Below, in pieces: positions 1-20,482 of a stretch of DNA of 64,000 nt; position 1 is the first letter of the stretch; every line of letters begins with the position of its first letter. Under the pieces are notes generated by a model. The model was not told the DNA's origin and did no database searches. It saw only the letters and a program-made list of their open reading frames with translations. The position numbers were made by a program, and so were the translations under genes. Source of the DNA: a virus; IMG/VR virus record IMGVR_UViG_3300020548_000009, positions 1-64,000 of that record. One strand, 5' to 3'.

Positions 1-19
1 CCCTCCCCCTTTCGGGCTT

Positions 20-94
20 CTAGTCCTCGTCGCACTCTTTGAGTGCTTCTCGGATTGCCTCGGCTACTTGCTGCCAGAACTGTTCTTCGGTCAT
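20..94 (-). CDS. 24-aa micropeptide MTEEQFWQQVAEAIREALKECDED (TExxFW family)
   Basis: Translated by hand; preceded by SD AGGAG, ACACA-ATG, a leader hairpin and a promoter at 141-170. Confidence 0.7.
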   Translation of the reverse strand: MTEEQFWQQVAEAIREALKECDED

Positions 95-198
95 TGTGTT
101 CTCCTATTGTGTTAGGTGGAGCGGTTGCCCCACTAAGAACAGGATACCACACTTGTTAGACAGAAACAACCTCTGCGAGCAGATTTCCGAAGAATCTT

Positions 199-325
199 GT
201 CAGGGGGCTTTCACCCCATGCGAGCCGGCTATCTCACCTTGCGCTCTCTAGGGATTGTTGCCTAGGGGGTGAGCCTTACCTAACTCTCTGGCTCAGGGGG
301 CTCGTCTTGAGCAGCCTGACCCGAT
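199..325 (-). ncRNA. Candidate structured ncRNA (~125 nt, multibranch)
   Basis: Promoter TTGCGA-N17-TACACT at 332-360; no RBS or ORF; closing stem GUCAGG/CCUGAC plus internal helices GCUC/GAGC, GAGCC/GGCUC, CUCACC/GGUGAG, CUAGG/CCUAG, GGGG/CCCC. Confidence 0.55.
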
Positions 326-660
326 AAGACCAGTGTATCACACTTGGCAACGCTTCGCAACTCCTAGCGAAGATTTTTTTAGGGGCTCCTCGGGCATTGC
401 GAGAATGAAACTAAGCCCTTAGTCACGGCTTTGAGAAACGAACGCTCTGGGGGCTCTCGGGCGCGTCTGGTGGGTCATCTGGTCGTGGTCGTCCGTGTGT
501 AATACAAGCGTTTAGACTGCCCTGGTGGCGAGCGTTTAGGAAACCTTGCCCTTAGTCAAGGCTTTTCCCGCGCGCCGCTCTTGGGGCTCTCGGGCGCGGC
601 TAACGCACCCCACGCTGCCCCGTCGGGGTAGTACCAGCGTGGGGTGCTGAGCCGTGTGCG

Positions 661-819
661 CTATTCGGCGTGGCGTATCTGGTCTGCGGCGCAGATTTCG
701 CAGAACGACTGTCCGAACGGCGGGTTGCACTCGTGGTCGATGTGAGTCATCAGCCCTGCATCCATCAGGCTGATTATTCGCTCAACTTCTGCCCAGAACT
801 CGGCTTCAGTGCGTACCAT
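661..819 (-). CDS. 52-aa small protein MVRTEAEFWAEV... with a C-terminal H/C Zn-binding-like motif
   Basis: Translated by hand; SD AAGGAG; promoter at 868-896. Confidence 0.7.
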   Translation of the reverse strand: MVRTEAEFWAEVERIISLMDAGLMTHIDHECNPPFGQSFCEICAADQIRHAE

Positions 820-1109
820 TGTCTTGCTCCTTCATTGTGTTGGTGGGGCTTGTTCCCCACACTCTTAGTGTATCACACTTCTAGCGATTTCGCAACTTCA
901 CCGAGCGCCGCCCGCCGTGTCGTAGTGCGACGCCAGAATGAAACCTTGCCCTTAGTCACGGAAACTTTTCAGCGCCGCTCTGGGGGCTTCCTATTGCGTC
1001 TGGTTGGCTGTTAGACAGCGCTCGCCGATTGCGTATGCTGGCGGATTTCTGCCTCCGCCGCTCTATCGGGGTTGGGCTTGGCGGGGGTTGCCCGCCAAGC
1101 CCTGCCCGA

Positions 1110-1376
1110 TTAGTCCAGTTGGGGCTTGGCGCTGGTGTCGGCGTAACGCTTGCCGAGCGAGCCTTGCGGGGCGAACAGTGGGTGCTGTTGCGTACCCTTA
1201 TCGGGGTCACCATAGGTAACCTTTGTGCCGAGCACGAACAGCGTCACGCCGTTGCGGGTGTAACGCATGGCACCCTTACGGGCGTTGTCACGGAGCCAAG
1301 CCGTTGGATTGGCTGGCGTTGGGTGGAATGTAATCACTTCGGTAACCTTCCTTCGTGGGTACTTCGTTTTCGCCAC
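1110..1376 (-). CDS. Hypothetical early protein (leaderless)
   Basis: ORF directly after promoter 1384-1412; strong hairpin follows the stop. Confidence 0.6.
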   Translation of the reverse strand: MAKTKYPRRKVTEVITFHPTPANPTAWLRDNARKGAMRYTRNGVTLFVLGTKVTYGDPDKGTQQHPLFAPQGSLGKRYADTSAKPQLD

Positions 1377-1585
1377 TAATACAAGGGTACACTATTGTTA
1401 GACACTTTGCAACTTCTGCGACCATTTGTCACACAATTGTCATACTTCACTGAGAGTGGTCGGTAGTCACGGAGAGTGGTCGCCGTCCTTGGGGTAGGAA
1501 ACTTTGCGATTGTGCGCACTTTCACAAGCCCGTGTCCGCGCCCGTGCCCGGGGCGAACACCTGTTCGCTTCTTGCCTCCGGCCTG

Positions 1586-1646
1586 CCCAAAATATGGTGT
1601 TCCTTGATTATTGGATTTATTTTCGTGCGGAGCGTTCCTTCGGGGC
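1586..1646 (+). repeat. Dispersed ~62 bp repeat, copy 1 of 9
   Basis: CCAAAATATGGTGTTCCTTGATTATTGGATTTATT...CGTTCCTTCGGGGC. Confidence 0.9.
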
Positions 1647-1690
1647 AGTTGGGCTCCCGCTCGCGGCGGGTAGCCCCTCTGCCTTTTGGT

Positions 1691-1834
1691 TTAGTCCCAC
1701 TCGCCCAGAGTTCGGAGGATGTCCTCAGTCCACCTTCTGAAGTCGGGATTTAGGTCAAGGTCTAGCGACCAATCGTAAATCTCTACTCGCTCGTGGTCCT
1801 CTCGGGTGATTTTGTTTTGTTCTCTCGGTGTCAT
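1691..1834 (-). CDS. 47-aa hypothetical early protein
   Basis: MTPREQNKITRED...GEWD; SD AAGGAG; promoter at 1855-1883. Confidence 0.65.
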   Translation of the reverse strand: MTPREQNKITREDHERVEIYDWSLDLDLNPDFRRWTEDILRTLGEWD

Positions 1835-1898
1835 TGTTTTCTCCTTCTGTTTTTAGTATAACATGGCTCGGGCTGTTTGTCAACCCGAGCCATGTTTT

Positions 1899-2138
1899 TT
1901 ATTTTTCCGTGATTCCTGCCAGACGGCAACCCTTGCGGATTTTGCCCATTCCTTGCTTGTCGCTCATTGAGCCCCAACCGTTGCTTACTTGCGTAAGTGT
2001 TCCGTTGGCGATTTCTGCCATGAGCGTTGAATAGTGCCAGATTTGGCGGACGCCTTCAACCTCAACGGCTCTCCATGAAGAAGCCTTGACGGTCTTGCCG
2101 TTTCGCAATGGCACTGTTGCTAGTTCCTGTATTTTCAT
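1899..2138 (-). CDS. Hypothetical early protein
   Basis: ORF with SD AAGGAG and promoter at 2178-2206. Confidence 0.75.
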   Translation of the reverse strand: MKIQELATVPLRNGKTVKASSWRAVEVEGVRQIWHYSTLMAEIANGTLTQVSNGWGSMSDKQGMGKIRKGCRLAGITEK

Positions 2139-2276
2139 TGTGTTGTTCTCCTTGTTTTGGTTTTGCCTTACACCTTCAGTATAGGGTACTGTTAGACATT
2201 TGTCAACCTTATCCGACAGAAACTTATTTTTCTTTTTGAGGTTGCTTTTTGTCTGCCGTTGTGTTATACTATTATT

Positions 2277-2404
2277 AGTGGGGGGAGGAGACGACTCGCG
2301 CCCCTCTCCGGTAAGACGCAGCCCGTGCGCCCCTCTTCGCCCTAGGTCGCCCGTGGTGGCCTCTGGCCGCCCCTTCGGGGGAGGGCTCTCACCCTCCCCC
2401 TTTC
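2277..2404 (+). ncRNA. Candidate plus-strand sRNA A
   Basis: Promoter TTGCTT-N17-TATACT (2242-2270); GC-rich, no RBS/ATG; ends at hairpin GGGGGAGGG/CCCTCCCCC followed by TTT. Confidence 0.45.
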
Positions 2405-2408
2405 GGGA

Positions 2409-2651
2409 CTACTTCGCCTCTTGCGTGTTGAGCAAGGTTCCGTATGCGTACACGATGTCGTAGGCGAGGTTGCTACAACGTCGCTGTACGACCCTCAGTG
2501 CGCCCTGAATGAGGATGCTCTTCTCTTCGTCGTGGGGTGTGTCGGCTGCCTCTGCTTCGGCTGCCTCTACTTGGTCAATTAGTCGACGCAGAATAAACTT
2601 GACTTCCTGCGCCCTCTTCTGTGCTATTTCACTCTCGGTCATTGTGTCCAT
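2409..2651 (-). CDS. Hypothetical early protein
   Basis: Start refined to MDTMTESE after SD AAAGGAG. Confidence 0.7.
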   Translation of the reverse strand: MDTMTESEIAQKRAQEVKFILRRLIDQVEAAEAEAADTPHDEEKSILIQGALRVVQRRCSNLAYDIVYAYGTLLNTQEAK

Positions 2652-2783
2652 TGCTTTTCTCCTTTGTGTTGGGTGAGGCGGTTGCCCCACTACTTCTAGT
2701 GTATCACAACTACTTCTCTTCGTCAACCTGAAACGCAAATTATTTTCATTCTTTGCCCCTGCGCACTTTTTGCCCTGGGTGGG

Positions 2784-2918
2784 TCAGTCCCACTCTCGGC
2801 GGTCGGGTGCCGGCTTGCGCTTGTGGTGGATAGTTACCGCACGGGTGCGCAGTCCGTCTGCGAACGCCTGCTTATCCGCGGGGTTCCAGCCCCTCCGCTT
2901 GCTCTTTTGGTTTTTCAT
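2784..2918 (-). CDS. 44-aa basic small protein
   Basis: MKNQKSKRRGWNPADKQAFADGLRTRAVTIHHKRKPAPDRREWD; SD GGAGGTG; promoter at 2937-2965. Confidence 0.65.
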   Translation of the reverse strand: MKNQKSKRRGWNPADKQAFADGLRTRAVTIHHKRKPAPDRREWD

Positions 2919-3042
2919 CTTCACCTCCATAAGACCAGTGTATCACACTTTTAGTGGTTTCGCAACTCGTTCCGCAAGATTTTGCCCCTGCGCGAACTTC
3001 GGGCTGAGAGGGCACTTCTCGTCCCCCTCAGCCCTTGCGCTC

Positions 3043-3240
3043 TTAGGCGTTGGCGTTTTCTTTCTTTGCCTTCACGGTTGGGTTTCCCAACTTGCGAGCG
3101 ACATCTACGATGTCACCAGTCAGGTTCAGGAACACCGTTCCGTTCTCTCCGTCTCGGAGTTCAATGCTCAACATTCCGTTGGTCATTTCTGCCGTGACAT
3201 CGTCCGCGGTGAGGTGGACGAATAGGTGTGTGCTTATCAT
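3043..3240 (-). CDS. Hypothetical early protein
   Basis: Start MISTHLF after AAGGAAGG. Confidence 0.7.
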   Translation of the reverse strand: MISTHLFVHLTADDVTAEMTNGMLSIELRDGENGTVFLNLTGDIVDVARKLGNPTVKAKKENANA

Positions 3241-3416
3241 TTCTGTTTCCTTCCTTGTTGTGTAAGGCGGTTGCCCTACTACTATTAGTGTATCACACTT
3301 GCGAGAGTTTCGCAACTCTTTGCGCCACCTTTTTTAGATTCTGCCCCAGCGGCCTTCGCTGGGCGAGTTTGGGGTGGCAAGGCAAGGAGGTAGAACCCTG
3401 CCACCCTCACTCGTTC

Positions 3417-3704
3417 TTATCGGGCTACGGCGAGCGAAGCCTTGTTCAGGGCATCGCTACTCTCTCGCCATGCGTCGCTATCGGCTGTCTCTCCGTAGAA
3501 CGCTTGACGATAGATACGCTTGCCTTTGTGGTACAACTCAACCATAACGGCGTTTGCCTTTATGCTGTCGTCGTATGTCACTTCGGCTTCGTAGGTGACT
3601 TTGGTAATCTCGTCGTAAGCCCACCCCGTAGGGAATAACTCACTGGATACCTCAATCCACTCGCCCGTTCGTTTTGCGCCTCTCGGCAGTCTGTAATAAC
3701 TCAC
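3417..3704 (-). CDS. Hypothetical early protein
   Basis: ORF with GAGG SD and promoter at 3753-3781. Confidence 0.7.
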   Translation of the reverse strand: MSYYRLPRGAKRTGEWIEVSSELFPTGWAYDEITKVTYEAEVTYDDSIKANAVMVELYHKGKRIYRQAFYGETADSDAWRESSDALNKASLAVAR

Positions 3705-3859
3705 TTCATTACCTCTCTCTCTTGTAGGTACTTCGGTTTCCCTACTAACTACACTATACCAGATTGTTAGACACTTGACAACCTTATCGGGCAGATTCCC
3801 GAAGAATCTTTTTGCCGGCTCAGGTTGACTTTTCGCTCATTGTGTGATACAATGATAAT

Positions 3860-3951
3860 AGACGGGGGAGAGGAGAGCCCGCCGCGGCCTCCGCCCGAAC
3901 GTATGTTCGCCCGCGCGCCCCTCTTCGCCCGGGGGTCGTTCTCTTCCCTCA
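3860..3951 (+). ncRNA. Candidate plus-strand sRNA B
   Basis: Promoter TTGACT-N17-TACAAT (3825-3853); closing stem GGGGGAGAGGA/TTCTCTTCCCTC; shares GCGCCCCTCTTCGCCC with sRNA A. Confidence 0.45.
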
Positions 3952-4010
3952 ATCTACTTTTATTTTACAGTGGGGGTGTAACACGGTTTCCCGCGCTACA
4001 CCCCCATTTT

Positions 4011-4322
4011 TTATTTTGCGAAACTCGCTACTGCTACCGCTATGTCCCAAGCATCAAACTCATCTGCTGTACCGTAGTTTTCAGTAGCGTTTTTACCGAA
4101 GTACGGCAGATTATCTTCTAGGTGTTCACGCAACGCTTCAAGCGTTGAGGGACTATCGATAATCTCTTTCAGAACCTCACCTACTTGGCGGAGTCTGTTT
4201 CCGTTGTTGGTGTTCCGAAACTGATAAGCCTCGAACCAATAGGTTCGGCTTTCTTCTGCTTGTTTTAGTGCTTTGCGTAACTCATCAACATACTCTTGGG
4301 TAATCGGCTGTTCGGTAATCAT
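4011..4322 (-). CDS. Hypothetical early protein
   Basis: Start MITEQP after AAGGAG. Confidence 0.7.
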   Translation of the reverse strand: MITEQPITQEYVDELRKALKQAEESRTYWFEAYQFRNTNNGNRLRQVGEVLKEIIDSPSTLEALREHLEDNLPYFGKNATENYGTADEFDAWDIAVAVASFAK

Positions 4323-4523
4323 TGTTTTTTCTCCTTGTTGTTTTGGTTTTGCCTTACACTCTAAGTATAGCATCTGTTAGACACTTTGTCTACTCAGAAT
4401 AGACATTGTGAAATGTTTCTTTTGCCCGCCGCGGCCTCCGCCCGCGGGCAATTTTCTCCCACACCCTATTTTAGCGTGGGGGTGTTACACAGTTATTTTT
4501 TACTGTGTAACACCCCTTTGCTA

Positions 4524-4802
4524 CTAGGCGTTTGCCGTTGCGAGTTTGTCGTAACGGTGTACGGGCTTTATGTCTTCATTCACTGCTCGCCCGATGCTCT
4601 TAGCATTGAGTAGGTCAGTGAGAGTGCCAAGCATGACATCGTAGTAGACATACTCGCTACCGTTTGTGTACTCAATTACCAATTCACCGTAGGCGAGTTC
4701 GTAATTGTCCGACTCGCCATGTTGGGCGAGGTCAATCTCGCTCACCGTATAAGTGAGTTTCCTCACTGCCGTTGAGTTGAGTTGGGTTACTTCTATTTTC
4801 AT
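4524..4802 (-). CDS. KTSC domain protein
   Basis: S-x-A-V-x-x-L-x-Y...L-V-I-E-Y-x-N-G-S-x-Y-x-Y-Y-D-V...L-L-N-A-x-S-I-G pattern. Confidence 0.75.
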   Translation of the reverse strand: MKIEVTQLNSTAVRKLTYTVSEIDLAQHGESDNYELAYGELVIEYTNGSEYVYYDVMLGTLTDLLNAKSIGRAVNEDIKPVHRYDKLATANA

Positions 4803-4890
4803 TTTGTTTCTCCTTTGTTGTTTTGTTATTGCCTTACACTTCTACTATACCGTTGGTGGGGCAGATTTCCAACCTGCCCCACCAGATTTT

Positions 4891-5073
4891 TTAGCGTCCG
4901 AATTCTTCCTGCCAGAGTTCTTCTGCTTTGTCTAGGATTCTGTCGGCGTAGCGAGTGCTCATGTAGTCGTCGTCAATCCACGGAATGAATCCGTTTCCTG
5001 CGAGGTGCTCTATGGCTCTCTCTACGAATCGCTCTTGCTCTTCTTCGCCTAGTTCACTGAATTCGGTAATCAT
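4891..5073 (-). CDS. Acidic hypothetical early protein
   Basis: ORF with AAAGGAG. Confidence 0.7.
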   Translation of the reverse strand: MITEFSELGEEEQERFVERAIEHLAGNGFIPWIDDDYMSTRYADRILDKAEELWQEEFGR

Positions 5074-5246
5074 TGGTTTCTCCTTTGTGTTGTTTTGCCT
5101 TACACTCTAATTGTACAGCATGGGTGTACCATAATTGCGCATTTACGCCATTTGTCACACAATTGTCATAATCGGCTGTTAGGCTCACCTAACAAGTGAT
5201 AGTGCGAATTTTCACAAGCCTCCGACCGAAGGTCGGCTCCCGGTAG

Positions 5247-5308
5247 CCCAAAATATGGTGTTTCCTGATAATCGGATTTATTTAGTGCTGTGGCGTTTCC
5301 CTTGGGGC
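5247..5308 (+). repeat. Dispersed repeat copy 2
   Basis: CCAAAATATGGTGTTTCCTGATAATCGGATTTATT...GCGTTTCCCTTGGGGC. Confidence 0.9.
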
Positions 5309-5362
5309 TGAGCGAAGGGGGTGAGCGCCCGGCCTGGTCGCCCACCCCACATCATTTTGCTC

Positions 5363-5515
5363 TTAGAGCCACTCAGAGACGTCGCCGTCGGCGATTTCTG
5401 AGTAGTCCAATCCATGAGCGTCGGCTACTGCTTGCCAGAAGTCTTCTTCTGTAAGCGGTGCTTGACCCTCTTGAACGTCTTCTGGGAGATGCTCCCACCA
5501 CGTTGTTTTATTCAT
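5363..5515 (-). CDS. 50-aa acidic protein containing TEEDFWQAV
   Basis: Translated by hand; SD GGAAAGGA. Confidence 0.7.
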   Translation of the reverse strand: MNKTTWWEHLPEDVQEGQAPLTEEDFWQAVADAHGLDYSEIADGDVSEWL

Positions 5516-5539
5516 TGTGTTTCCTTTCCTGTTGGGTAA

Positions 5540-5740
5540 TTACAGTGTATCACACTCTAGGAGTTTTAGCAACTCTTTCTGGGTCATTTCCTGAATCTGT
5601 GCCGCGTCTAGGTCTGCGGGTTTGATGACCTCAATGATTTGGCCCCTGCCTTGCGCGACTTCGCGGGCTGAGTAGAGGCTGAGGTACGGGCCGAGGTAGA
5701 TATCTCCCGCGGCTGTGTTGAGTTTGATGATGTAGTTCAT
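5540..5740 (-). CDS. Hypothetical early protein
   Basis: Start MNYII after AAGGAG. Confidence 0.6.
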   Translation of the reverse strand: MNYIIKLNTAAGDIYLGPYLSLYSAREVAQGRGQIIEVIKPADLDAAQIQEMTQKELLKLLECDTL

Positions 5741-5803
5741 GTTTCTCCTTGGCCTCCGGGCGGCGGCTGGTGGGGCACTTCTCGTCCCCACCAGCCTGAC
5801 CCG

Positions 5804-6268
5804 TTAGGCGTTGATTAGTTCTTTCTGAGCCTTGACCCACTGCTCGTAGTTCCAGGCTTCGGTTGTCACGATTGCCTTGATTACCTTGAGGGGAATCTCG
5901 GCTTGGTTATTGCCGTACTTCACGGCGTTGTTTGCCCACTCAGTGATGCTGTAGGTGCTGTGGTTGGTGCTGAGTCCGACCATCTCATCTACCATCGCTG
6001 GCGTGATGTAGAGGTTGTGGCGTTCGCCATCTTCTCTCCACTCGTACATCATCGGGCTTTGGCTCATCGCCTCAACAGCCTTAGACCGACCGTAGTAGTC
6101 AGCCGCGTTGGCTTCGGTGATGCGCCCGTATCCGACTACGCCACCCCAGAAGATGAACGTCTGAATGTCGCCGCGTACGTTGTCATGACCGTACTCGTCT
6201 TTGACCCAGACTCCCTCGGGGTTCTTGGCGTAAGCCTTTGTATTTCCGATATCCCATGTCAATGGCAT
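5804..6268 (-). CDS. Hypothetical early protein
   Basis: Start MPLTWD after AAAGG. Confidence 0.75.
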   Translation of the reverse strand: MPLTWDIGNTKAYAKNPEGVWVKDEYGHDNVRGDIQTFIFWGGVVGYGRITEANAADYYGRSKAVEAMSQSPMMYEWREDGERHNLYITPAMVDEMVGLSTNHSTYSITEWANNAVKYGNNQAEIPLKVIKAIVTTEAWNYEQWVKAQKELINA

Positions 6269-6384
6269 TGTGTTTACCTTTCCTTTGTTTGTGTGGGGCG
6301 GTTGCCCCACTACTAATATTGTATCACCTATTCTGCTGTCTCACAACCTCGGCGGCAAGGTTTTGCCTCCGGGCGGTGCTCGCC

Positions 6385-6621
6385 CTACCTTTCGGTAGGG
6401 ACGAGACCAGCGGGCTTCAGTGAGTTATTCAGCACGAGGCCGTAGAAGTGGCCTGTGACTGCATCCTTCACGAACGAGTGTCCCATTGTGCCGTTTGGCG
6501 GTGCGCCAAGGCCACCTGAGCACTTCACCACGAGGGTTCCACGCTTTGGCTGGTGTGGGCGGGCATCAAAGATGTCCATCCCGACGGGTTCGTATCGGTA
6601 TTGCCTGATTTTCTTGGTCAT
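6385..6621 (-). CDS. Hypothetical early protein
   Basis: Start MTKK after GGAGG. Confidence 0.7.
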   Translation of the reverse strand: MTKKIRQYRYEPVGMDIFDARPHQPKRGTLVVKCSGGLGAPPNGTMGHSFVKDAVTGHFYGLVLNNSLKPAGLVPTER

Positions 6622-6769
6622 TGTGTTTTCCTCCATGATGTTAGTATAACAGATGTTTTGCGGTATTGCAACCTTCTTTTATTCCTTTATTGCCCCTGCC
6701 GGCTTTGCCGGAGGGAGGTCTTGGGCTGGTGGGGGAAGGAGGTAAGGAACCCCACCAGCCGCACTCGAC

Positions 6770-7036
6770 CTATGCTTTCAGTGTATCACACTTTTCACGC
6801 TCTCGCAACTCTGCCAGCGTGATTTCACCCTTTATCAAGGATGCCCACTCTGATAGGTCTGCGACATTGAGACGCTCCGGCTCGGTGCCGCAAGGGTACT
6901 TGGCGGCTTGGTGCCAAGCCTTTGCGTCACATTCTCCGCAAACGGGCGTGCCGTCAAACGACCACCACGAATGCGTGAGGTAGTTAGCCTCAGCCTCTTC
7001 TTTAGTTCCCTGAAACGGGACTGGAACATTTGCCAT
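6770..7036 (-). CDS. Small Zn-binding-like protein (CxxC...H...C)
   Basis: Start MANVP; CGECD...WHQAAKYPCG. Confidence 0.65.
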   Translation of the reverse strand: MANVPVPFQGTKEEAEANYLTHSWWSFDGTPVCGECDAKAWHQAAKYPCGTEPERLNVADLSEWASLIKGEITLAELREREKCDTLKA

Positions 7037-7112
7037 TTTCTTACCTTTCTTGTGTTGGTGGTGCTTCTGCCCCACATCTACAGAATACCAGATGTGGGGC
7101 AGAATGACAACC

Positions 7113-7490
7113 TTATTTTAGGATTTTTTCTAGTGTCTGTTGGTAGGTCTGCCATTGTGACGGGATACCGTTTTTTCCCATTGCCACAGCCTTGTCAAAG
7201 TCTGTTTCGCCAGAGCCCAGGATTTTTCGGACTGCCAGAATGCGGTCACGGACTGCTTCACGGTCTGCGCTATCACCGTCAAACGGGAATAGCGGGGACG
7301 GGTCAGTCAGATGAGCCATTGCCGCATCACAGATTTCGTCGTATGTGGCAAACGGATACAGCGAGGTTTCTTCACTGCTGAATAGATAGAACTCACAGCA
7401 GTATTCGCTGAACTGTTCGTATCGGTCTATTCTCTCTAATCTCTCTATTGCGCTTCCAGCATACGGGCTGGTACCTTGTGTGGTGGTCAT
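7113..7490 (-). CDS. Hypothetical early protein (leaderless)
   Basis: ATG 6 nt after CATAAT. Confidence 0.7.
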   Translation of the reverse strand: MTTTQGTSPYAGSAIERLERIDRYEQFSEYCCEFYLFSSEETSLYPFATYDEICDAAMAHLTDPSPLFPFDGDSADREAVRDRILAVRKILGSGETDFDKAVAMGKNGIPSQWQTYQQTLEKILK

Positions 7491-7615
7491 ACATACATTA
7501 TGCCGTACTGTTAGACAGATTACAACCTTATTCGTATTACAGAAGTATTACATTTGGCTTGTGCTTGTTCGCACTTTCACAAGCCCGGGGCCGGTGAAAT
7601 TGATTTTTGCCCCTG

Positions 7616-7678
7616 CCCCAAAATATGGTGTTCCTTGATTATTGGATTTATTCTGCTTTGCGCCGTTCCCCTTGGGGC
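7616..7678 (+). repeat. Dispersed repeat copy 3
   Basis: CCAAAATATGGTGTTCCTTGATTATTGGATTTATT...GCCGTTCCCCTTGGGGC. Confidence 0.9.
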
Positions 7679-7720
7679 TGGGCTGGTGGGGGATTGCCCC
7701 ACCAGCCTCGCTGACCATTC

Positions 7721-8131
7721 TTAGAGGTACTTGGCTACTGCGCCGTAGGAAGAAGTACGGACATACTCTTCGTCGGACAGTTCTAGCACTCGGATTGCGT
7801 TCGCAAGTTCCTCTTGCGCTTCTTTATTGATGCGCTCGCTGAAATTGCTTTCCAAAGTGGGAAGTGAAATCTTGTGACTGAAAGTCACGGTGACTTCATT
7901 TACTTCTTCTTGGTTGTAGCGGTAAGGGTAAGCAAACGATACCTCTTTCGGCGTGAGTTTGCCAGACTTCACAAGCGCGGCGACAGACTTCTTGATGTCT
8001 GCGATTGCCTGCTTCTGAGCCTTCTCAGCCTTAGCGTGGTTGTTCGCTTCCTCAACCTTGCGGTTAAGTGCCTCGTTGAGCGCTTTGAGCAACTTGCCCT
8101 TGGCTACCCGTACATTGATTGTCTTACTCAT
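7721..8131 (-). CDS. Hypothetical early protein
   Basis: 136-aa ORF with SD and promoter. Confidence 0.75.
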   Translation of the reverse strand: MSKTINVRVAKGKLLKALNEALNRKVEEANNHAKAEKAQKQAIADIKKSVAALVKSGKLTPKEVSFAYPYRYNQEEVNEVTVTFSHKISLPTLESNFSERINKEAQEELANAIRVLELSDEEYVRTSSYGAVAKYL

Positions 8132-8193
8132 TGTGTTTATTGCCTTTCCTGTTTTGTTGGTAGTGGGGAGGTTTCCCCACTACTATTATTGTA

Positions 8194-8592
8194 TCACAGG
8201 TTGCGCTCTTTGGCAACCCGTGACGCGATTTTCTTTCGCTGGTTGTTGGTACGCCAGCATGACGCTTGGTAGGCGATTTCGCTTACCTCGTCGCAGTAGA
8301 TGCCGACAAACTCGGTCTCGATGACTGCCTGATTGCGCTTTGCGCCGCTGGTGACACGGCGAACGCAACGCACACGGTAGGTGTCGTTGAAGTCCAGCGT
8401 GATTTCCACCATGCGAGCACGCCCGACAGGGAGCCATACGCCGATTGTGTTTTGTTCAGCGTCACGGAGAGAACCCCAACGACCACCGGAGATGGCGAAT
8501 AGGTTCATCATGCCGACTTGACGGATGATTTCCGCTGGGTCGCATTCACGACCTTCACGGTTGAGTATTGGGAGTGTGTATGTGTTTGTCAT
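8194..8592 (-). CDS. Hypothetical early protein (leaderless, start MTNTY)
   Basis: ATG 6 nt after TATAAT. Confidence 0.7.
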   Translation of the reverse strand: MTNTYTLPILNREGRECDPAEIIRQVGMMNLFAISGGRWGSLRDAEQNTIGVWLPVGRARMVEITLDFNDTYRVRCVRRVTSGAKRNQAVIETEFVGIYCDEVSEIAYQASCWRTNNQRKKIASRVAKERNL

Positions 8593-8776
8593 ACTCTCAT
8601 TATACGACCTGTTAGACAAATTAGCAACTCTTTTAGTGAACTTTCTGAGTGGCCGGCTGACCACGGAGAGTGACCTCGGCCCCTGTGGCTTATTTGCATG
8701 GCTTGCAAATAAGCAACTGTTGTGATTTGCCCCTGGGATGGGCGGGCAGGAAAGGATTGCCTGCCCACCCTCCGCG

Positions 8777-8995
8777 TCAGGAGTTTGCCTCCATTTCGCA
8801 GAATCGTTCCCATAGGTCTTCTTCGGTGTTGTAGCGGTCGCCCAAGTCATCGACGCCAATCGGTCTGCCCGTGGCACCGCACCATTCGTAGAAGCGGTCT
8901 ACCTTTTTCTTCCAGTTAGCGTAAGTGCTAACAAGTTGAGGGTCGCCCATCCAGACAAATCCCCGGTACGGACGGCTCACTATTTTGCTATTCAT
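8777..8995 (-). CDS. Hypothetical early protein
   Basis: ORF with AAAGGA; ends TEEDLWERF. Confidence 0.7.
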   Translation of the reverse strand: MNSKIVSRPYRGFVWMGDPQLVSTYANWKKKVDRFYEWCGATGRPIGVDDLGDRYNTEEDLWERFCEMEANS

Positions 8996-9125
8996 TGTGT
9001 TTTCCTTTCTTGTGTTGTTACTTCTATTGTATCACACTTATTGTCAGTTTGCAACTCCGGTTGGAGATTCTGCCCCTGCGCTCGGGCGAGCCGTGGGCTG
9101 GTGGTTTCCCACCAGCCCGACAGAC

Positions 9126-9572
9126 TCAGCCGAAGATTGCTCCTACTGCGTCAGCGAGTGCGCCTTGCGCCTTGCCTTCGTCAATAGTCAGTTCGTCGTT
9201 GCCTGCCATTGAGAGTGCGCTGGCGATAGAACCGTCACGGCTCACCACGACCAGCAACTCCACACGCCGACGCTCAGGGTGCTGAGACGGGGGGGTGTTG
9301 TCACCGTCTGCGACGGGCGAAGCCCAGCCAGCAGTAATAACGCCGTAGTAGTTTGCTGACTTGTCTGGGGTGACATTGTCCAGCAGGTCGTAGACATCTC
9401 CACCACACTGCTCCATGTCCTTTATCCAGATTGGGTGTCCGTCATGGAACGCCACGGGTGCTACCCGAGCCTTTGACGGGGTATTGGTTGGGTTGGTGTT
9501 GAGACAGTCCACGCCGAGCAGTGCGACGATTTCCGCCACGCTCAGGTCTGTCGTATTCGTGAGTGTATTCAT
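9126..9572 (-). CDS. Hypothetical early protein
   Basis: Start MNTL after GGAAAGG. Confidence 0.7.
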   Translation of the reverse strand: MNTLTNTTDLSVAEIVALLGVDCLNTNPTNTPSKARVAPVAFHDGHPIWIKDMEQCGGDVYDLLDNVTPDKSANYYGVITAGWASPVADGDNTPPSQHPERRRVELLVVVSRDGSIASALSMAGNDELTIDEGKAQGALADAVGAIFG

Positions 9573-9666
9573 TGTGTTGCCTTTCCTTGTTTTGTTGTGG
9601 GCGGGATTGCCCACTACTTAGATTGTACCACCGTGTTAGACATTTGTCAACTCGGCCAGCGAGAAT

Positions 9667-9892
9667 CCACTACGAAGCCACCGACAGCAAGCGTCCTTGC
9701 CCATTCCGTTGCGACTCATCGGGTAGCAAGCCCGATTGCCGCCAATAGCAGGGACTAGCAGGGACGGCTACATCGCAGGAGAGGAACTGAGTGTGTGCCG
9801 CGGCACTTCTCTCGTACATCGCTGGTGATACAACGTGTGTCTGGTAATGCTATTCGTATGTTGTCAGTAACTTCGTAGTGGTTTCCCACTAC
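9667..9892 (-). ncRNA. Candidate large structured ncRNA (~225 nt)
   Basis: Own promoter at 9897-9925; the ends pair over ~20 bp (CCACUACGAAGUUACUGACA/UGUCGGUGGCUUCGUAGUGG) with G-U pairs only on the minus strand. Confidence 0.7.
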
Positions 9893-9945
9893 TAATACTG
9901 TATCACATTCTAGTCGCTCTCGCAACCTTATTCTGAATTATTTTT

Positions 9946-10000
9946 GTGGGGTGGTGCCGACTACGACACTCTTACTCGGGTATCATTGCGAACCCCACAC
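9946..10000 (-). ncRNA. Candidate small ncRNA (~55 nt)
   Basis: Promoter TTGGAA-N17-TACAAT at 10005-10033; stems GUGGGG/CCCCAC and AUGAUAC/GUGUCGU; no ORF. Confidence 0.45.
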
Positions 10001-10088
10001 TTAGATTGTACCACATCAGGGGCATGATTCCAACCTTGTGCAAAGATTCTTTTGCTGGTGCCGGGCCCGGCAACAAACTCTGCCCCTG

Positions 10089-10153
10089 CCCCGAAAAAAT
10101 GGTGTTCCTTCATGTTCGGATTTATTCTGTTGTGCTGGCGTTTCCCTTGGGGC
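10089..10153 (+). repeat. Dispersed repeat copy 4
   Basis: AAAAAATGGTGTTCCTTCATGTTCGGATTTATT...GCGTTTCCCTTGGGGC. Confidence 0.9.
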
Positions 10154-10191
10154 CGGGTTCTGCCCCTGCGCGCGCCGGTGCGCTCGCGGCC

Positions 10192-10220
10192 CGAACATCT
10201 GTTCGCCGAACGCGTGTTCG
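10192..10220. promoter_or_regulatory. Two tandem LexA (SOS) boxes CGAAC-N4-GTTCG
   Basis: CGAACatctGTTCG and CGAACgcgtGTTCG; further copies at 1554-1567 and 3896-3909. Confidence 0.7.
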
Positions 10221-10250
10221 GGTGGGGCTTTCGCCCCACCCTTTACGCGG

Positions 10251-11294
10251 TCAGACTCCGAGGAGTTGGAGAACCTTTCGGTCACTCTGCTCGGTCTTGC
10301 CCATGAGCGCGTTCATCATGTTGCGTTCTGCTCGGTTGTCCGAGTTTCCAACGACATGGTGGTTGTAAGTGTTGAACGCTTGAAGAACTCCAAGTGCTGA
10401 ACCCTTCCACGGTGCGACGCGCACATCGTAGTTGTAAAGACTGACAATTTCTTCGCGCTTGTTCTCTGCGCGAGTCACTGCCGCTTTATTCTTATCGTCT
10501 GGCATGAGCGTCGGAATCGGCGCGAGTGCTTCAAGCACTTTCTGCCATTCTGCGTCGCTCACTTTGTGCTCGGACAGTTTCGTAATCTCTGCCATGATGT
10601 TGTCGGTCATCTTGTGAACGATGCCGAGCGCATCACGCGCTGACTGAATCCGCATTGCCGAGTTCTTGCTGTGGCGAGTCTTGAATTGACTCGTGTTCTC
10701 TTTCATCGCCATTGCGTGAGTGTTGTCGCACACTACGAAAGTGGAGACACTCTTGTAGGTGGTTGCCAACATTCCGTTGTGCGATGTCGTGGCGAGCAAG
10801 TGAGGACGGACGCTGAATCCTTCCAACACTTCTACCGACTCTGGCATTTCCAAAGATACGAACGCGACTGCGCCGTTCTTCAAGATGCCTGCCGAGCCAA
10901 AGTTGATGTCATCATCAACGATGTTCGCCAAGTTCTGAACGAGCCATTCTGGATACTGGTGCGAGCAGTAATCTTTGCCGAAGATTTCCATCAGGTCGTT
11001 AGTGTCTGAGCGCAAGATTGCCTGACGCTCTACCTCTACGAACTTGATTGGGTTTCCGTTATCGTCCACGCCTGTGGCATCGTCAAGCGTTGCTGGAACG
11101 CGAACGAACACTGGCGCGCTGACTGCCGACCACGCGAAGAGCCGACGCAAGATGTCATCGGTCGGAATTGCGCCTTCGTAGTGGTTGGGCTCGGTGCCTT
11201 GTAGGTCGGCGCGGTAGTGCCACGCGTTGCCACGCTCGGCGGTGAACCCGACGAGGATGTTGGAGTTGAGCCACTCCATGGTTTCTTTGGACAT
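10251..11294 (-). CDS. DUF932 / phage-plasmid-like protein (TIGR03299-type)
   Basis: AWH motif near the N-terminus, LLATTSHNG, VVCDNT, RHS motifs. Confidence 0.8.
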   Translation of the reverse strand: MSKETMEWLNSNILVGFTAERGNAWHYRADLQGTEPNHYEGAIPTDDILRRLFAWSAVSAPVFVRVPATLDDATGVDDNGNPIKFVEVERQAILRSDTNDLMEIFGKDYCSHQYPEWLVQNLANIVDDDINFGSAGILKNGAVAFVSLEMPESVEVLEGFSVRPHLLATTSHNGMLATTYKSVSTFVVCDNTHAMAMKENTSQFKTRHSKNSAMRIQSARDALGIVHKMTDNIMAEITKLSEHKVSDAEWQKVLEALAPIPTLMPDDKNKAAVTRAENKREEIVSLYNYDVRVAPWKGSALGVLQAFNTYNHHVVGNSDNRAERNMMNALMGKTEQSDRKVLQLLGV

Positions 11295-11461
11295 TGTGTA
11301 TTACCTTTCTGTGTTTGGTTGTTTGGGTTGGTATTGCTATTACTAAGTGTATCACATTGCTGTTGCTTTCGCAACCTTATCGGAAACTATTTTTGTAGTT
11401 CCCGCTACTGATACCACTGTATAGGCGAAACAATCAAAGCACAACCTATTTACAGAATTAT

Positions 11462-11482
11462 TTATCCACAGGCTGTGGATAA
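11462..11482. promoter_or_regulatory. Inverted pair of perfect DnaA boxes, 3 bp apart
   Basis: TTATCCACA-ggc-TGTGGATAA. Confidence 0.75.
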
Positions 11483-11537
11483 CTTTCGGCCCGGGCCCCC
11501 GTTGTTTATATACAAAGCGTTATGGGTTTTGCCCCTG

Positions 11538-11599
11538 CGCGAAAATATGGTGTTCCATGAATATTGGTTTTATTTGGGCAGCGGCCGTTCCCTTGGGGC
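11538..11599 (+). repeat. Dispersed repeat copy 5
   Basis: AAAATATGGTGTTCCATGAATATTGGTTTTATT...GCCGTTCCCTTGGGGC. Confidence 0.9.
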
Positions 11600-11605
11600 C
11601 AGGGG

Positions 11606-11692
11606 GCCCGCCCAGGACAGAAAGGGAATAAGAACCTGGGCGGGCGCCACACCCGACGACTGGGACACAAGGAAGGAAAGACCCAGCCGCGT
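11606..11692 (-). ncRNA. Candidate two-hairpin anti-RBS sRNA
   Basis: Promoter TTGACA-N16-TGtCATACT (11698-11725); two stems with C/U-rich loops complementary to phage RBSs. Confidence 0.6.
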
Positions 11693-11732
11693 TGTCAAGT
11701 ATGACAGTTATTTTATTTATGTCAAGCAGCCG

Positions 11733-12257
11733 CTACTCGCCACCCTCAAAGTTGAGGATTGCTTTGATGAGTTTCTCTGCTTCTTCTGGTGTGAACTCAT
11801 CTGGCTGTTTGATGGCCGCGCGAGTCTGTTCGTGCTGAATGAAACTATCCACGTCCCACAGAATGTCTGCGGTACGGCGGAAGAGTTCTACGTCAACGCG
11901 ACCCAACTTCTGGACGTACGAGACGTGCTCAGCCGGAGTTCCACTGATTCCTATTTCGTGGACTTTAATCCAGCCCGTAGGAGTGAGGTATTCCAGCCGC
12001 GCGTATGACTGGTCGTCGTACGCGTTGCGGGCGATGTAGACACGCCGCGCGTTCGTATTCGTCTTGCGCATCACTTCTGTGAAGTGCCACGTTTGATGGT
12101 GGTTCCACAGACTGATGAGTCTGTTGTCTTCTACGTACGTGACGCCACTATCTGTCGCATCGGACAGATAGACAACGTCTTCGTACTTGGTTCCGCGTTT
12201 TTCGGTGTATCCGTTTGTTTCGGTGTAGTTGTTCATGACCATACCTTCTTTACGCAC
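11733..12257 (-). CDS. Hypothetical protein
   Basis: ORF in operon; true start probably near 12242. Confidence 0.7.
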   Translation of the reverse strand: MRKEGMVMNNYTETNGYTEKRGTKYEDVVYLSDATDSGVTYVEDNRLISLWNHHQTWHFTEVMRKTNTNARRVYIARNAYDDQSYARLEYLTPTGWIKVHEIGISGTPAEHVSYVQKLGRVDVELFRRTADILWDVDSFIQHEQTRAAIKQPDEFTPEEAEKLIKAILNFEGGE

Positions 12258-12703
12258 GTAAGGACATTGAGTGTGACTCCGTCAAACAGCCAGCGCCACT
12301 CAGCACCGTCTTCGCCGCGCCAGTCAACAACACTGTCTTTCTCAACGTATTTTGCGATTGCTGAGAAGAAGTGGTCTTCTGAACCCGTCTTGTTGTCGTA
12401 GTAAATAGCGAACAGGTCACCATCGTCGTTGTACTCGGCTTCAAATCCAAGAGCGTCAATGATTTCCTGAAAGGTCTTGTATTTATTTGGGTAATCCGCT
12501 GGCATCCACGCGAACCACTTGGCAGGATGATGGTCCATGCCTTCTGGTCGTGGGCTGCGAGCATCAACTCCGTCGCCGCCGTACGAGCCGCCAGACTTCA
12601 AGTCGTCGCGGTCGTTGAGAGCGCACATTGCCTCGTAACACTTGACAAAGTGCTCTTTCTTGATTGTTATGTCATTGTTGGTTGTTTGAACAAAGTATCC
12701 CAT
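12233..12703 (-). CDS. Hypothetical phage protein
   Basis: 156-aa ORF with promoter and leader hairpin. Confidence 0.75.
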   Translation of the reverse strand: MGYFVQTTNNDITIKKEHFVKCYEAMCALNDRDDLKSGGSYGGDGVDARSPRPEGMDHHPAKWFAWMPADYPNKYKTFQEIIDALGFEAEYNDDGDLFAIYYDNKTGSEDHFFSAIAKYVEKDSVVDWRGEDGAEWRWLFDGVTLNVLTCVKKVWS

Positions 12704-12927
12704 TGTTTTCTCTTTCTATTGAGTTGGTGAGGCGGTTGCCTCATTACTTACATTGTATCACGTTGTTGGTTGGTTTGCAACTTCTGCTTCAAGGTGTAGG
12801 CGAATATCCAGCAGCAGGTCTGTCATCTCCGAGGAGGAGACAAGGTCTCTGCCGGAGATTTCCGACAGAGCCTCATCCACGAGTTTTCTTGCTGCTTCGT
12901 ATTTGTCGCCAGTCATAGGCTCAGACA

Positions 12928-13146
12928 TTAGTGCTTCCCGATGTCTAGAAAACCTGTTTCGTTGCCTTCTGGGTCAGACATTACGAGAGCGTCGGTCCCA
13001 TCAGTGAACTCCAAAATGCATGTTGGTGTTTTTGAATAAAGCCAACCTGTTTCTTTGTTCTCTTCGTCCGTCAGTTCACGAACGTTCTTGATGGTCTTGC
13101 CGACAAGCGACTCAGCGTAATGAGTTTTGTTTATTACTGTGCTCAT
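12928..13146 (-). CDS. Hypothetical protein
   Basis: ORF coupled to the XRE gene. Confidence 0.7.
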   Translation of the reverse strand: MSTVINKTHYAESLVGKTIKNVRELTDEENKETGWLYSKTPTCILEFTDGTDALVMSDPEGNETGFLDIGKH

Positions 13147-13409
13147 ACCTTGATGCCTGTCACGAGTTCTTCTGGACGCGTATCAAGCGCGTAGCAGATA
13201 CGGAAAAACGTATCCAGCGACGGAGAGAAGTGTCCATTCTCGATTCTGTTGATGGTCTTGCGGTCAATGCCTGCGCTCTTAGCCAAATCGCCCTGAGAGA
13301 GACCGATGGTCTCGCGCAGGCTCTTTACTCGGCTTGCAACTTCAAGCAGTGCCTTTTTGTTCATTGCGTTGTTCATTGTTTGTCTTTCTTTCTGTGGGTG
13401 TTGTGCCAC
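13143..13409 (-). CDS. XRE-family HTH transcriptional regulator
   Basis: LRETIGLSQGDLAKSAGIDRKTINRIENGHFSPSLDT. Confidence 0.9.
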   Translation of the reverse strand: MAQHPQKERQTMNNAMNKKALLEVASRVKSLRETIGLSQGDLAKSAGIDRKTINRIENGHFSPSLDTFFRICYALDTRPEELVTGIKV

Positions 13410-13510
13410 ACTTACATTGTACCATGACCGAGTCAGGCTTGCAACCTTCCCGAAAAAATATGTTCGCGGATATTGTTGCCGTCTGACCCGGCCAAGGATT
13501 TTGCCTCTGG

Positions 13511-13570
13511 CCCGGAAATATGGTGTTCCAGAGAAATCGGATTTATTTTCGTAGCGCCGTTCCCTTGGGC
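13511..13570 (+). repeat. Dispersed repeat copy 6
   Basis: AAATATGGTGTTCCAGAGAAATCGGATTTATT...GCCGTTCCCTTGGGC. Confidence 0.9.
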
Positions 13571-13598
13571 TGGTTGTACAGCCGCAAGGGACAGGTGC

Positions 13599-13769
13599 CT
13601 AGCCGCGCTTCTTGAGGTAAGCCTCAATAGCGGACTTGATGACTGCGGACTTGCTGACCTTGTCCTCTTTGGAAACGGTCGCGATTTTGCGAGCCATGTC
13701 CTCGGAAAGACGGAAGGCGATAAGTGGGTACTTAGCCTTTGGGGTAGTTGCTGTCTTGGTCTTGCTCAT
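13599..13769 (-). CDS. Ribbon-helix-helix (CopG/Arc-like) DNA-binding protein
   Basis: IAFRLSEDMARKI...VSKSAVIKSAIEAYL. Confidence 0.8.
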   Translation of the reverse strand: MSKTKTATTPKAKYPLIAFRLSEDMARKIATVSKEDKVSKSAVIKSAIEAYLKKRG

Positions 13770-13972
13770 TGCTTTCTTCTTTCTATGTGTGTTGGTATTA
13801 CATCTCAATTATACATTGTGTCTAACGCATCTACAACCTCTGTGCGCGAGTTCACTCGCGCTTTGGGGTTAAGTGACGGTTATATGACGGTTAAGGGACG
13901 GTTAGATAGAAATGGTACAGGCTCAAACCCTTACTGGGTAAGGGTTTCCGGGCTTTTGTACCATATTTGCGG

Positions 13973-14103
13973 GTGACAATCTGTCACCTTGGGGGTGACA
14001 ACCTGTCACCCCGGGGGTGACAACCTGTCACCCCCTAGTGACAATCTGTCACTACTTGTGGCGGCCGTCACATACTACATGTAGTGGGGTGACAACCTGT
14101 CAC
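13973..14103. repeat. Five palindromic iteron-like units GTGACA-AYC-TGTCAC (candidate origin)
   Basis: Starts at 13973, 13995, 14017, 14038, 14089 (22/22/21/51 bp spacing). Confidence 0.85.
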
Positions 14104-14119
14104 CCCCTACATCTAGAGA
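14072..14119. promoter_or_regulatory. Tandem NrdR-box-like sites 32 bp apart
   Basis: ATACTACATGTAGTGG and CCCCTACATCTAGAGA versus consensus acaCwAtATaTwGtgt. Confidence 0.6.
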
Positions 14120-14121
14120 GG

Positions 14122-14802: not shown

Positions 14803-14859
14803 TTCTTATTCCCTTTCATTGAGTTGGTTATTGCTTACACTTACATTGTAGCACAATAA

Positions 14860-17872: not shown

Positions 17873-17984
17873 GACTCTATTGTAGCACAAACAATCCGGT
17901 TTCGCAACCTTGTTCACAATTTCACAAATACTTTCAGGTATTTTATTTGAGACACTTTTCAGTTTTTGTCTTATTTGCCCCTAG

Positions 17985-18046
17985 CCAAAAATATGGTGTT
18001 CCATGGAAAATGGTTTTATTTTTAGGGACAGGCCGTTCCCTTGGGC
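17985..18046 (+). repeat. Dispersed repeat copy 7
   Basis: CCAAAAATATGGTGTTCCATGGAAAATGGTTTTATT...GCCGTTCCCTTGGGC. Confidence 0.9.
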
Positions 18047-18048
18047 CC

Positions 18049-20427: not shown

Positions 20428-20482
20428 CCCAAAAAAATGGTGTTCCAGCCAGGATGGCTTTATTCTGCTCGCGCCGTTTCTT
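20428..20482 (+). repeat. Dispersed repeat copy 8 (runs into a -10 TAGACT and leaderless ATG at 20494)
   Basis: AAAAAATGGTGTTCCAGCCAGGATGGCTTTATT...GCCGTTTCTTAGACT. Confidence 0.8.

Follow-up and report, generated by a model that had tools for sequence, protein, structure and literature searches.

The first 64,000 nucleotides of the 84,684-bp single-contig virus record IMGVR_UViG_3300020548_000009 (CheckV completeness 64%), hereafter the window, contain three small minus-strand genes that are each followed, 3-10 nt past the stop codon, by a GC-rich stem-loop, and in two of these the open loop resembles 16S rRNA's anti-Shine-Dalgarno (anti-SD) end. Some 96-98% of the sampled words of the record are present in many lake-water/freshwater metagenome runs. 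The window has a G+C content of ~50%, nearly all of its long open reading frames (ORFs) lie on the minus strand, and its proteins show only distant matches, at 30-45% identity, to proteins of Arthrobacter, Rhodococcus, and Gordonia phages. A search of the phage collection with the window nucleotides gave no match, and protein matches revealed no cultured relative or host; the phage appears actinophage-like by its proteins, and the host is only inferred to be actinobacterial. The first ~14 kb, labelled an early-type region by analogy, is a dense array of small genes, every one of which has a separate consensus promoter (type TTGCAA-N17-TGnTAYAAT). In 1-12000, 23 promoter-like sites were counted where 6.2 would be expected, and the minus strand carries 20 of them. 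The usual Shine-Dalgarno (SD) sequences of the phage genes are AGAAAGG, AAAGGAG, or AAGGAG.

The three genes, all of early type and on the minus strand, occupy 3417-3704 (95 amino acids (aa), GTG start, leader GAGAGGUAAUGAAGUG), 6770-7036 (88 aa, conserved Cys-containing motifs, leader AGAAAGGUAAGAAAAUG, homologs in at least 10 related contigs), and 8777-8995 (72 aa, leader AGAAAGGAAAACACAAUG). Strong GC stem-loops had been placed right after their stops by the initial annotation, and they are indeed present there in the sense (minus) strand. Hairpin 1 (3362-3416) consists of a lower 5-bp stem (CGAGU/ACUCG) around an 11-bp upper stem at 3372-3406, which starts 10 nt past the stop of its gene and encloses a 13-nt loop at 3383-3395 (stem, loop, and stem: GGGUGGCAGGG / UUCUACCUCCUUG / CCUUGCCACCC). 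Hairpin 2 (6714-6772) has a lower stem (GGUC/GACC) around an 11-bp upper stem at 6724-6760, which starts 9 nt past the stop and encloses a 15-nt loop at 6735-6749 (GGCUGGUGGGG / UUCCUUACCUCCUUC / CCCCACCAGCC). Hairpin 3 (8740-8770; GGGUGGGCAGG / CAAUCCUUU / CCUGCCCGCCC) is a weaker case, with an 11-bp stem that includes one U-G pair and a loop at 8751-8759; with three more outer pairs it starts 3 nt past the stop. All three were also said to carry large anti-SD loops. This holds for hairpins 1 and 2, whose open 13-15 nt loops contain ACCUCCUU. Hairpin 3 offers only UCCUUUC, not CCUCC; its loop CAAUCCUUU is 9 nt long, shares UCCUUUC with the 16S tail only when stem letters are counted, and is closed to 4 nt in the minimum-energy fold via two A-U pairs.

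Hairpins 1 and 2 are each followed on the minus strand by a second hairpin, at 3343-3364 (GCCCAGCG AAGGC CGCUGGGC) and 6693-6718 (CCCUCCGGC AAA GCCGGCAGGGG), then by the word GGGGCAGAAU or GGGGCAAUAA, respectively, and then by the next promoter (-35 boxes at 3315 and 6671). In these tandem pairs, the anti-SD loop occurs on the first hairpin only. The 11-bp stems contain 9-10 G-C pairs, and the sense folds, including the 5-bp lower stem, reach -30.5, -31.1, and -28.2 kcal/mol for hairpins 1, 2, and 3 (z = -5.5, -5.2, and -2.9), whereas the antisense folds are weaker (z = -2.9, -3.7, and -2.1). G-U pairs that form in sense only are found in hairpin 1 (one) and hairpin 3. Across the anti-SD hairpins at least 8 sense-strand G-U pairs were counted, the antisense equivalents of which would be A-C mismatches; the one antisense mismatch checked, in hairpin 3, is A-A.

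Relatives of the phage were recognized among IMG/VR contigs by a pattern for the stem GGCUGGUGGGG...CCCCACCAGCC, and colinear loci were obtained from four of them fetched via a 347-aa neighbor gene. Their nucleotide identity to this phage is ~80% for L013 and ~70% for L009 and L010, and L008 is more distant. In this phage and these four relatives (five genomes), loops of at least 7 nt were compared with the reference 16S tail GAUCACCUCCUUUCU. A common stretch of at least 7 nt was found in 20 of 134 loops in sense and in 0 in antisense, and 23 loops had a match of at least 6 nt, compared with a mean of 7.7 (maximum 17) after the letters of each loop had been shuffled. As the loop copies are partly homologous, these counts show strand and order specificity rather than independent events. 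The longest matches reach 9-10 nt (UCACCUCCUU, ACCUCCUUUC). In the relatives, at least seven different GC stems carry the loops UUCACCUCCUUC, UUCAACCUCCUUC, CUUACCUCCUUUCC, UUCCACCUCCUUCC, UCGCCUCCUUGG, and UUCACCUCCCUUU. The consensus loop, UUCNACCUCCUU(C/U), is a G-free pyrimidine stretch of 11-15 nt on an upper stem of 11-13 bp, located 3-13 nt past the stop of a small early gene. A YUNR U-turn ahead of CCUCC could be seen by eye in only about half of the loops and was not used.

Conservation of the loops in relatives (contigs of IMG/VR and of JGI metagenomes), a check proposed by the initial annotation, is borne out in three gene families, where the loops are kept while the stems change or compensate. 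After homologs of gene 6770-7036, a hairpin that has CCUCC(C)UU in its loop occurs in all five genomes and in five further metagenome contigs (L093-L099), whose homologs share 46-49% protein identity and one of which shows a G-C to A-U compensatory change. Homologs of gene 8777-8995 in four genomes are followed by three unrelated stems with UCCUUUCC in every loop; the orthologs of hairpin 3 in L013, L009, and L010 have open 12-14 nt loops (UCAUCCUUUCCG, CUUACCUCCUUUCC, and CUUCCCUCCUUUCC) on unrelated stems. Between this phage and L013, hairpin 1 shows four pairs with full compensation and a single change from G-U to G-C, and 11 of its 13 loop letters are identical. In an alignment of 12 consistently aligned rows, 100% of the cells are paired and 6 of the 11 pairs are doubly changed, which none of 500 shuffles reaches, and slid controls collapse. 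The same rows seeded the covariance model R1, which gives hairpins ~50-56 bits in sense and ~30 bits when the same stems are read in antisense; hairpin 1 obtains 49.9 bits, on the minus strand only, and hairpin 2 obtains 54.1 bits in sense against 30.1 in antisense. In four whole contigs (this phage and three relatives), all R1 matches fall within the early-type region. Judged by sequence, fold, strand specificity, position, conservation, and stem covariation, the hairpins are a real, conserved RNA motif of the sense strand.

Hairpin 2 appears to have a promoter of its own at 6780-6808 on the minus strand, TTGCGA-N17-(TGTGA)TACACT (TGTGATACACT), within the 3'-terminal part of gene 6770-7036. 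The -10 box stops 19 nt short of the hairpin and the start is predicted near 6773, so that a separate short RNA could have hairpin 2 as its 5' part. The promoter is kept in L013 (TTGCGA-N17-TACAAT) and absent in L009, L010, L008, and L093-L099, whose ORF ends earlier. A dedicated promoter was also sought for hairpins 1 and 3 and was not found; measured against trans-acting small RNAs directed at ribosome-binding sites (RBSs), only hairpin 2 thus has the promoter that such RNAs possess.

A neighboring minus-strand RNA without an ORF, at 11603-11725, is preceded by the promoter TTGACA-N16-CATACT and folds into two hairpins. Its loop UUUCCUUCCUUGU is a perfect 13-nt complement of the RBS of gene 3043-3240 (3246-3258), and its loop UUCUUAUUCCCUUUC is a perfect 15-nt complement of the RBS of gene 14122-14802 (14803-14817); the estimated chance expectation for such matches is ~0.001 or fewer. 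Stem covariation is seen for the first hairpin, kept in L013, L009, and L010, and for the second, kept in L013, L009, L010, and L008, and the first target is retained in L013 (12 nt). The perfect anti-RBS loops of this RNA suggest that loop-displayed anti-RBS sequences are a recurrent device in this phage group.

With regard to partners of the three loops, the strongest SDs come out best; for loops 1 and 2 the top prediction (-17.5 and -18.2 kcal/mol) is the minus-strand RBS GAAGGAGGUGAA at 20196-20207, which belongs to a 66-aa gene (19990-20190) and is the exact 12-nt complement of the L009 loop UUCACCUCCUUC. This RBS is regarded as a candidate target only, for 85 kb of sequence would yield a 9-nt match by chance. 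One 9-nt loop complement lies at the RBS of a tail-fiber-like gene (71405-72865), likewise within the chance level for 85 kb. Clade-level co-variation between CCUCCCUU loops and GGG-type RBSs (10/117 vs. 10/57) is suggestive, not significant.

The most likely explanation, to which a probability of about 0.45 may be given, is that the hairpins mask Shine-Dalgarno sites as sense-strand RNA elements of the early-type region. The stem would protect the 3' end; with no U-tract following, a 3' exonuclease barrier or a processing end point is likelier than a classical terminator. The loop would pair with SD sequences and compete with 30S subunits. Because it complements the generic SD core and not one leader, its set of targets would be broad; sites of the GGAGG(U) type, like the one of gene 19990-20190, would pair best, and pairing within the same mRNA might occur through mere proximity. 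Free hairpin RNA could build up as a decay-resistant 3' fragment, and that of hairpin 6724-6760 could also be produced from its dedicated promoter. In this scheme, transcript ends, stability, pairing in vivo, and any effect on translation are predictions. The initial annotation had offered, as its second option, stable 3' fragments that act as generic SD blockers; the idea is plausible and gains support from the dedicated promoter before hairpin 6724-6760 and from the neighboring anti-RBS RNA 11603-11725. It had been added that such blocking would favor many leaderless phage genes, which is overstated: there are ~4-5 credible cases (starts 7490, 8592, 15696, 17872, and perhaps 13409), and most other candidates are GTG codons within 5' leader hairpins.

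Several observations weigh against SD masking. No long specific target was found in the genome, the longest complements of loops 1-3 being 8-9 nt, which is the chance level for 85 kb. For the SDs of early genes, pairing with the loops (-7.1 kcal/mol) is nearly on a par with pairing with the 16S tail (-8.65 kcal/mol), so that a generic blocker would hit phage genes too. The idea of an SD partition, in which phage SDs avoid the loops, was rejected, for the loop motif overlaps tail positions 7-13, with which phage SDs pair. One clade of relatives has CCUCCCUU loops that deviate from the true 16S tail. At the loci of gene 6770-7036 homologs in L091/L092 and L100 the hairpin is not present, and outside the syntenic sets the covariation is partly circular, given that the hairpins were first found by a hairpin search. 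Among the runs that contain the stretch no RNA run is listed; contigs of one doubtful RNA run (X20) leave the hairpins uncovered and extend over 3660-3752, 3851-3870, 4264-4301, 4424-4546, 4627-4776, 4796-4830, and 7141-7467 only.

An unlikely alternative to SD masking, though the best of those considered, is a purely structural role at the 3' end, as terminator, pause site, or barrier to exonucleases, the G-free C/U loop being kept for reasons other than SD pairing; these might include avoidance of misfolding with the G-rich 5' arm, a small Rho/S1 binding patch, or guidance of co-transcriptional folding. Intrinsic terminators have a GC-rich stem of at least 5 bp, a loop of ~3-8 nt, and a U-rich tract directly after the stem. 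The phage hairpins share with them the GC-rich stem and the position just past the stop codon and before the next promoter, as expected of a transcript-end element, and in other 3' hairpins of the region the same stems bear loops that are short or unrelated (CAAUC, GAAA, and ACGAGAAGUG). In contrast to terminators, the loops measure 13 and 15 nt (9 nt in hairpin 3) and no U-tract follows any of the three stems, which continue with CCAAACUCGCC, CAAGACCUCC, and AUCCCAGGGG; two of the three terminator features are therefore lacking, and a terminator scan of the window listed none of the hairpins. Large loops weaken hairpins and are uncommon in terminators. Mycobacterial RNA polymerase needs the U-tract to terminate (PMC3993855), a comparison that presupposes the inferred actinobacterial host, and, with this need and the two features wanting, the stem is better read as a protector of the 3' end than as a proven terminator. 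The loops are uniformly pyrimidine-rich, as a structural role would allow, but loops shuffled at constant composition agree with the 16S tail much more rarely than the real ones, and matches of up to 9-10 nt argue in the same direction.

Rather improbable is a fold-back in cis, in which the loop pairs with the SD of its own mRNA and thereby closes the message, represses translation, or shields the 5' end. Such a fold-back is likened to icaR of Staphylococcus aureus or to the fbi-tac pairing of type I toxin mRNAs. The transcripts would be short (~250-400 nt), which kinetically favors intramolecular pairing. In the icaR mRNA, an anti-SD-like motif of the 3' untranslated region pairs specifically with the mRNA's own leader and creates an RNase III site (PMC3868564); the phage hairpins have in common with it an anti-SD-like motif in the 3' untranslated part that can pair with an SD, but their own leader is not preferred and the motif recurs behind several unrelated genes. 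A 12-bp duplex, interrupted by one mismatch and a bulge of 2 nt, is possible in this phage and in L013 between the hairpin 2 loop and the leader of the same gene, AAGAAAGGUAAGAAA; where the loop has a CUUA insertion, the leader has GGUAAG. Own-leader pairing had been claimed for all three genes, and the leader words in question (GAGGUA, AGGUAAG, and GAAAGGA) do exist. The pairing appears unspecific, however. Any SD pairs with any anti-SD sequence, and own leader-loop energies of -8 to -11 kcal/mol rank no better than those of other leaders; in RNAduplex predictions over 18 hairpins, the own RBS stood at a mean rank fraction of 0.47, and the RBS of the next gene at 0.51, among the RBSs of the genome (for hairpin 2, the own RBS ranked 15 of 35). 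Co-variation of loop and leader across orthologs was not consistent and was absent in L094, L095, L009, and L010. The analogy to type I toxin mRNAs fails at the level of the proteins: the three products (72-95 aa) are soluble and acidic, lack a hydrophobic segment (maximum 19-residue Kyte-Doolittle mean 0.09-0.55), and have no significant family match in Pfam or PHROGs, the only Pfam match being VbhA at 19.5 bits, below the 25.9-bit cut-off. There is no plus-strand promoter-like site opposite the three genes, as an antisense RNA would require, the nearest (3825-3853) pointing away, and a dedicated promoter of hairpin 2 would make no sense for a purely cis-acting element.

It is also doubtful, and distinctly so, that the loops are decoys of the 16S tail, mimicking the anti-SD to soak up a single-strand-specific abortive-infection toxin of the MazF type or a ribosome-associated factor. 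They hold pentads cut by actinobacterial toxins that remove the anti-SD, namely CACCU, the site of MazF-mt11 (PMC12274833), and UCCUU and UUCCU, those of MazF-mt3 and MazF-mt6, respectively (PMC5408214), and the mimicry reaches past the CCUCC core. On the other hand, RelE1 and RelS, two further toxins that cut the anti-SD, require the 30S subunit in assembled form (PMC12620021, PMC13284704), and bare loops would therefore be no competing substrate. The CCUCCCUU variants imitate the tail less well, both toxin and host are candidates only here, and RNA 11603-11725 clearly targets RBSs with no rRNA mimicry. If the decoy were real, abundant early phage RNAs would amount to an RNA-based counter-defense by substrate mimicry. 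Related to this would be a possible global switch, by which host messages of the GGAGG type are blocked while phage messages escape. It is scarcely credible that the other strand is the functional one, with plus-strand hairpins displaying a perfect SD (GAAGGAGGUAAGGAA), or that the stems are a DNA-level repeat: the near-palindromic stems fold on the plus strand as well, and GGCUGGUGGGG is a repeated word in the region, but the minus strand has all genes and most promoter-like sites listed in 1-12000, the plus-strand SD is not followed by a start codon, G-U pairs and z-scores favor the sense strand, and the same loop on at least seven different stems cannot be copies of one repeat.

Bacterial small RNAs with anti-SD loops are known, including cuckoo/CcsR, 6C, RsaE, and RNAIII. 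The closest design to the SD-masking hairpins proposed here is that of cuckoo/CcsR1-4 (RSs0680, alpha-r14) of Alphaproteobacteria, for which variable stems and a conserved anti-SD loop are the defining features (PMC4615179). In both, the stems vary by compensatory changes while the loop motif is conserved, here with 6 of 11 pairs doubly changed and at least seven stems. In cuckoo/CcsR RNAs, CCUCCUCCC is the only conserved sequence, the loops are 9-27 nt long, and the modules are multicopy in each genome; they are free-standing host small RNAs with 2-4 adjacent hairpins that each have the motif, whereas the phage elements are single motif hairpins at the 3' end of a phage mRNA, followed by a second hairpin without the motif. 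The phage loop UUCNACCUCCUU is also a closer copy of the 16S tail than CCUCCUCCC. The actinobacterial 6C small RNA, from the phylum nearest to the phage by its proteins, has GC-rich hairpins and C-rich loops as well, and these loops bind mRNAs at purine-rich sites without a chaperone (PMC6486639). It is, however, a conserved host gene with two C-run loops, in place of which the phage loops hold an ordered anti-SD word. A search of Rfam 15, at the gathering score for the window and at E<=1 for 1-14500, returned only two spurious microRNA-type hairpins and no match to cuckoo/CcsR or 6C, nor to icaR or c4. The c4 antisense RNA of P1/P7, as summarized in PMC12197685, is a processed free RNA with long specific complementarity to one target, ant/icd. 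With loops pairing around the RBS to block translation, it seems a good analogue of RNA 11603-11725, unlike the 3' hairpins, which show generic SD complementarity only.

Beyond the relatives, the pattern GGGG-UUC..ACCUCCUU..-CCCC recovered further true hairpins with 10-bp stems in two viral contigs (L016 and L025), in which no protein shared with this phage was detectable within the DNA fetched. In bacterial genomes, with roughly six times more DNA by estimate, the same pattern gave 59 matches, about the number expected by chance, and long stems in two only. Both of these are from spirochaetes, L054 7403-7436 (-) of Alkalispirochaeta alkalica and L073 4974-5009 (-) of a Spirochaetales metagenome-assembled genome, with 11-bp stems, loops UUCACCUCCUUU and UUCGACCUCCUUUU, and a U-tract after each; an upstream -10-like box reads TACAAT in L073, and only a weaker TATACA word is found in L054. 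They may be tiny anti-SD small RNAs. In another viral contig, L020 (6222-6300; also L021, L024, and L026-L028), a tRNA-like element GCCGGGG...CCCCGGCACCA with a T-arm-like hairpin has the 12-nt loop UUCACCUCCUUC at the position of the anticodon arm and lies directly before a tRNA-Glu/Leu/Gln array. It was not called by ARAGORN, and no protein homology of these contigs to this phage was detected.

Other elements of the region were observed alongside the anti-SD hairpins. A second conserved loop class, ACGAGAAG(U/C)G, occurs on differing stems at 5765-5796 and 3001-3034 (-), at 17602-17637 in L009, and at 18724-18759 in L010; one copy lies between two genes of one operon, and a complement of at least 9 nt to these loops was sought in the genome and not found. 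After the second hairpin, a (C)AGGGGCA(G/A)AAU word stands 15-35 nt upstream of the -35 boxes (e.g., 6689-6698, 3337-3346, 9063-9072, and 8726-8735). It is kept in relatives (alignment A1) and might serve to bind a protein, act in the manner of an UP element, or mark the transcript end. In the minus-strand 3' hairpins 1860-1896, 4854-4884, and 7065-7104, the promoter of the next gene lies within the hairpin, so that transcript end and next promoter overlap: the first two have the -35 box in the loop (TTGACA and TTGGAA, respectively), and the third has the -10 region (TATTCT) in the loop and the -35 just upstream of the stem. The word UGUCUAACA is found in or adjoining the spacer of several early-type promoters (~3765, 4375, 7510, 8610, 9640, and 2190) and may be a shared operator. 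In leaders of the middle region, a CA-rich word, (A)ACCAAC(N)CAA(U), directly precedes the SD (e.g., 20210-20225, 14818-14832, 17258-17270, and 16650-16665).

A co-oriented repeat of ~60-70 bp (sense ...AAUAAAUCCNAUNAUCAAGGAACACCAUAUUUUGGG...) lies between transcription units at 1582-1622, 5246-5305, 7606-7676, 10080-10150, 11530-11610, 13497-13573, 17976-18048, and 20378-20478, and is repeated in the relatives too. On the plus strand, at 3825-4017, a promoter (TTGACT-N17-TACAAT) appears to drive a GC-rich non-coding stretch of ~150 nt, the end of which is formed by a canonical terminator and its U-tract (3971-4006, then TTTTTTATTTT). There is a similar GCCCGCCGCGGCCUCCGCCCG core at 4420-4450 (region ~4400-4520), adjoining a bidirectional hairpin at 4479-4516. 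In one contig from a wastewater run, position 3870 is joined to 4424, 7 other letters standing in place of 3871-4423, which suggests a variant without gene 4011-4322 that arose by recombination between the repeated GC-rich non-coding elements.

What is new here is a predicted anti-SD loop device that forms part of the 3' ends in several early phage messages and is kept across a clade of uncultured freshwater phages. Its loop motif is short and can readily be searched for and tested in vitro. If the loops do mask RBSs, they would provide a cheap, protein-free means of timing or throttling phage or host translation, and phage hairpins that look like terminators could hold regulatory information in their loops.

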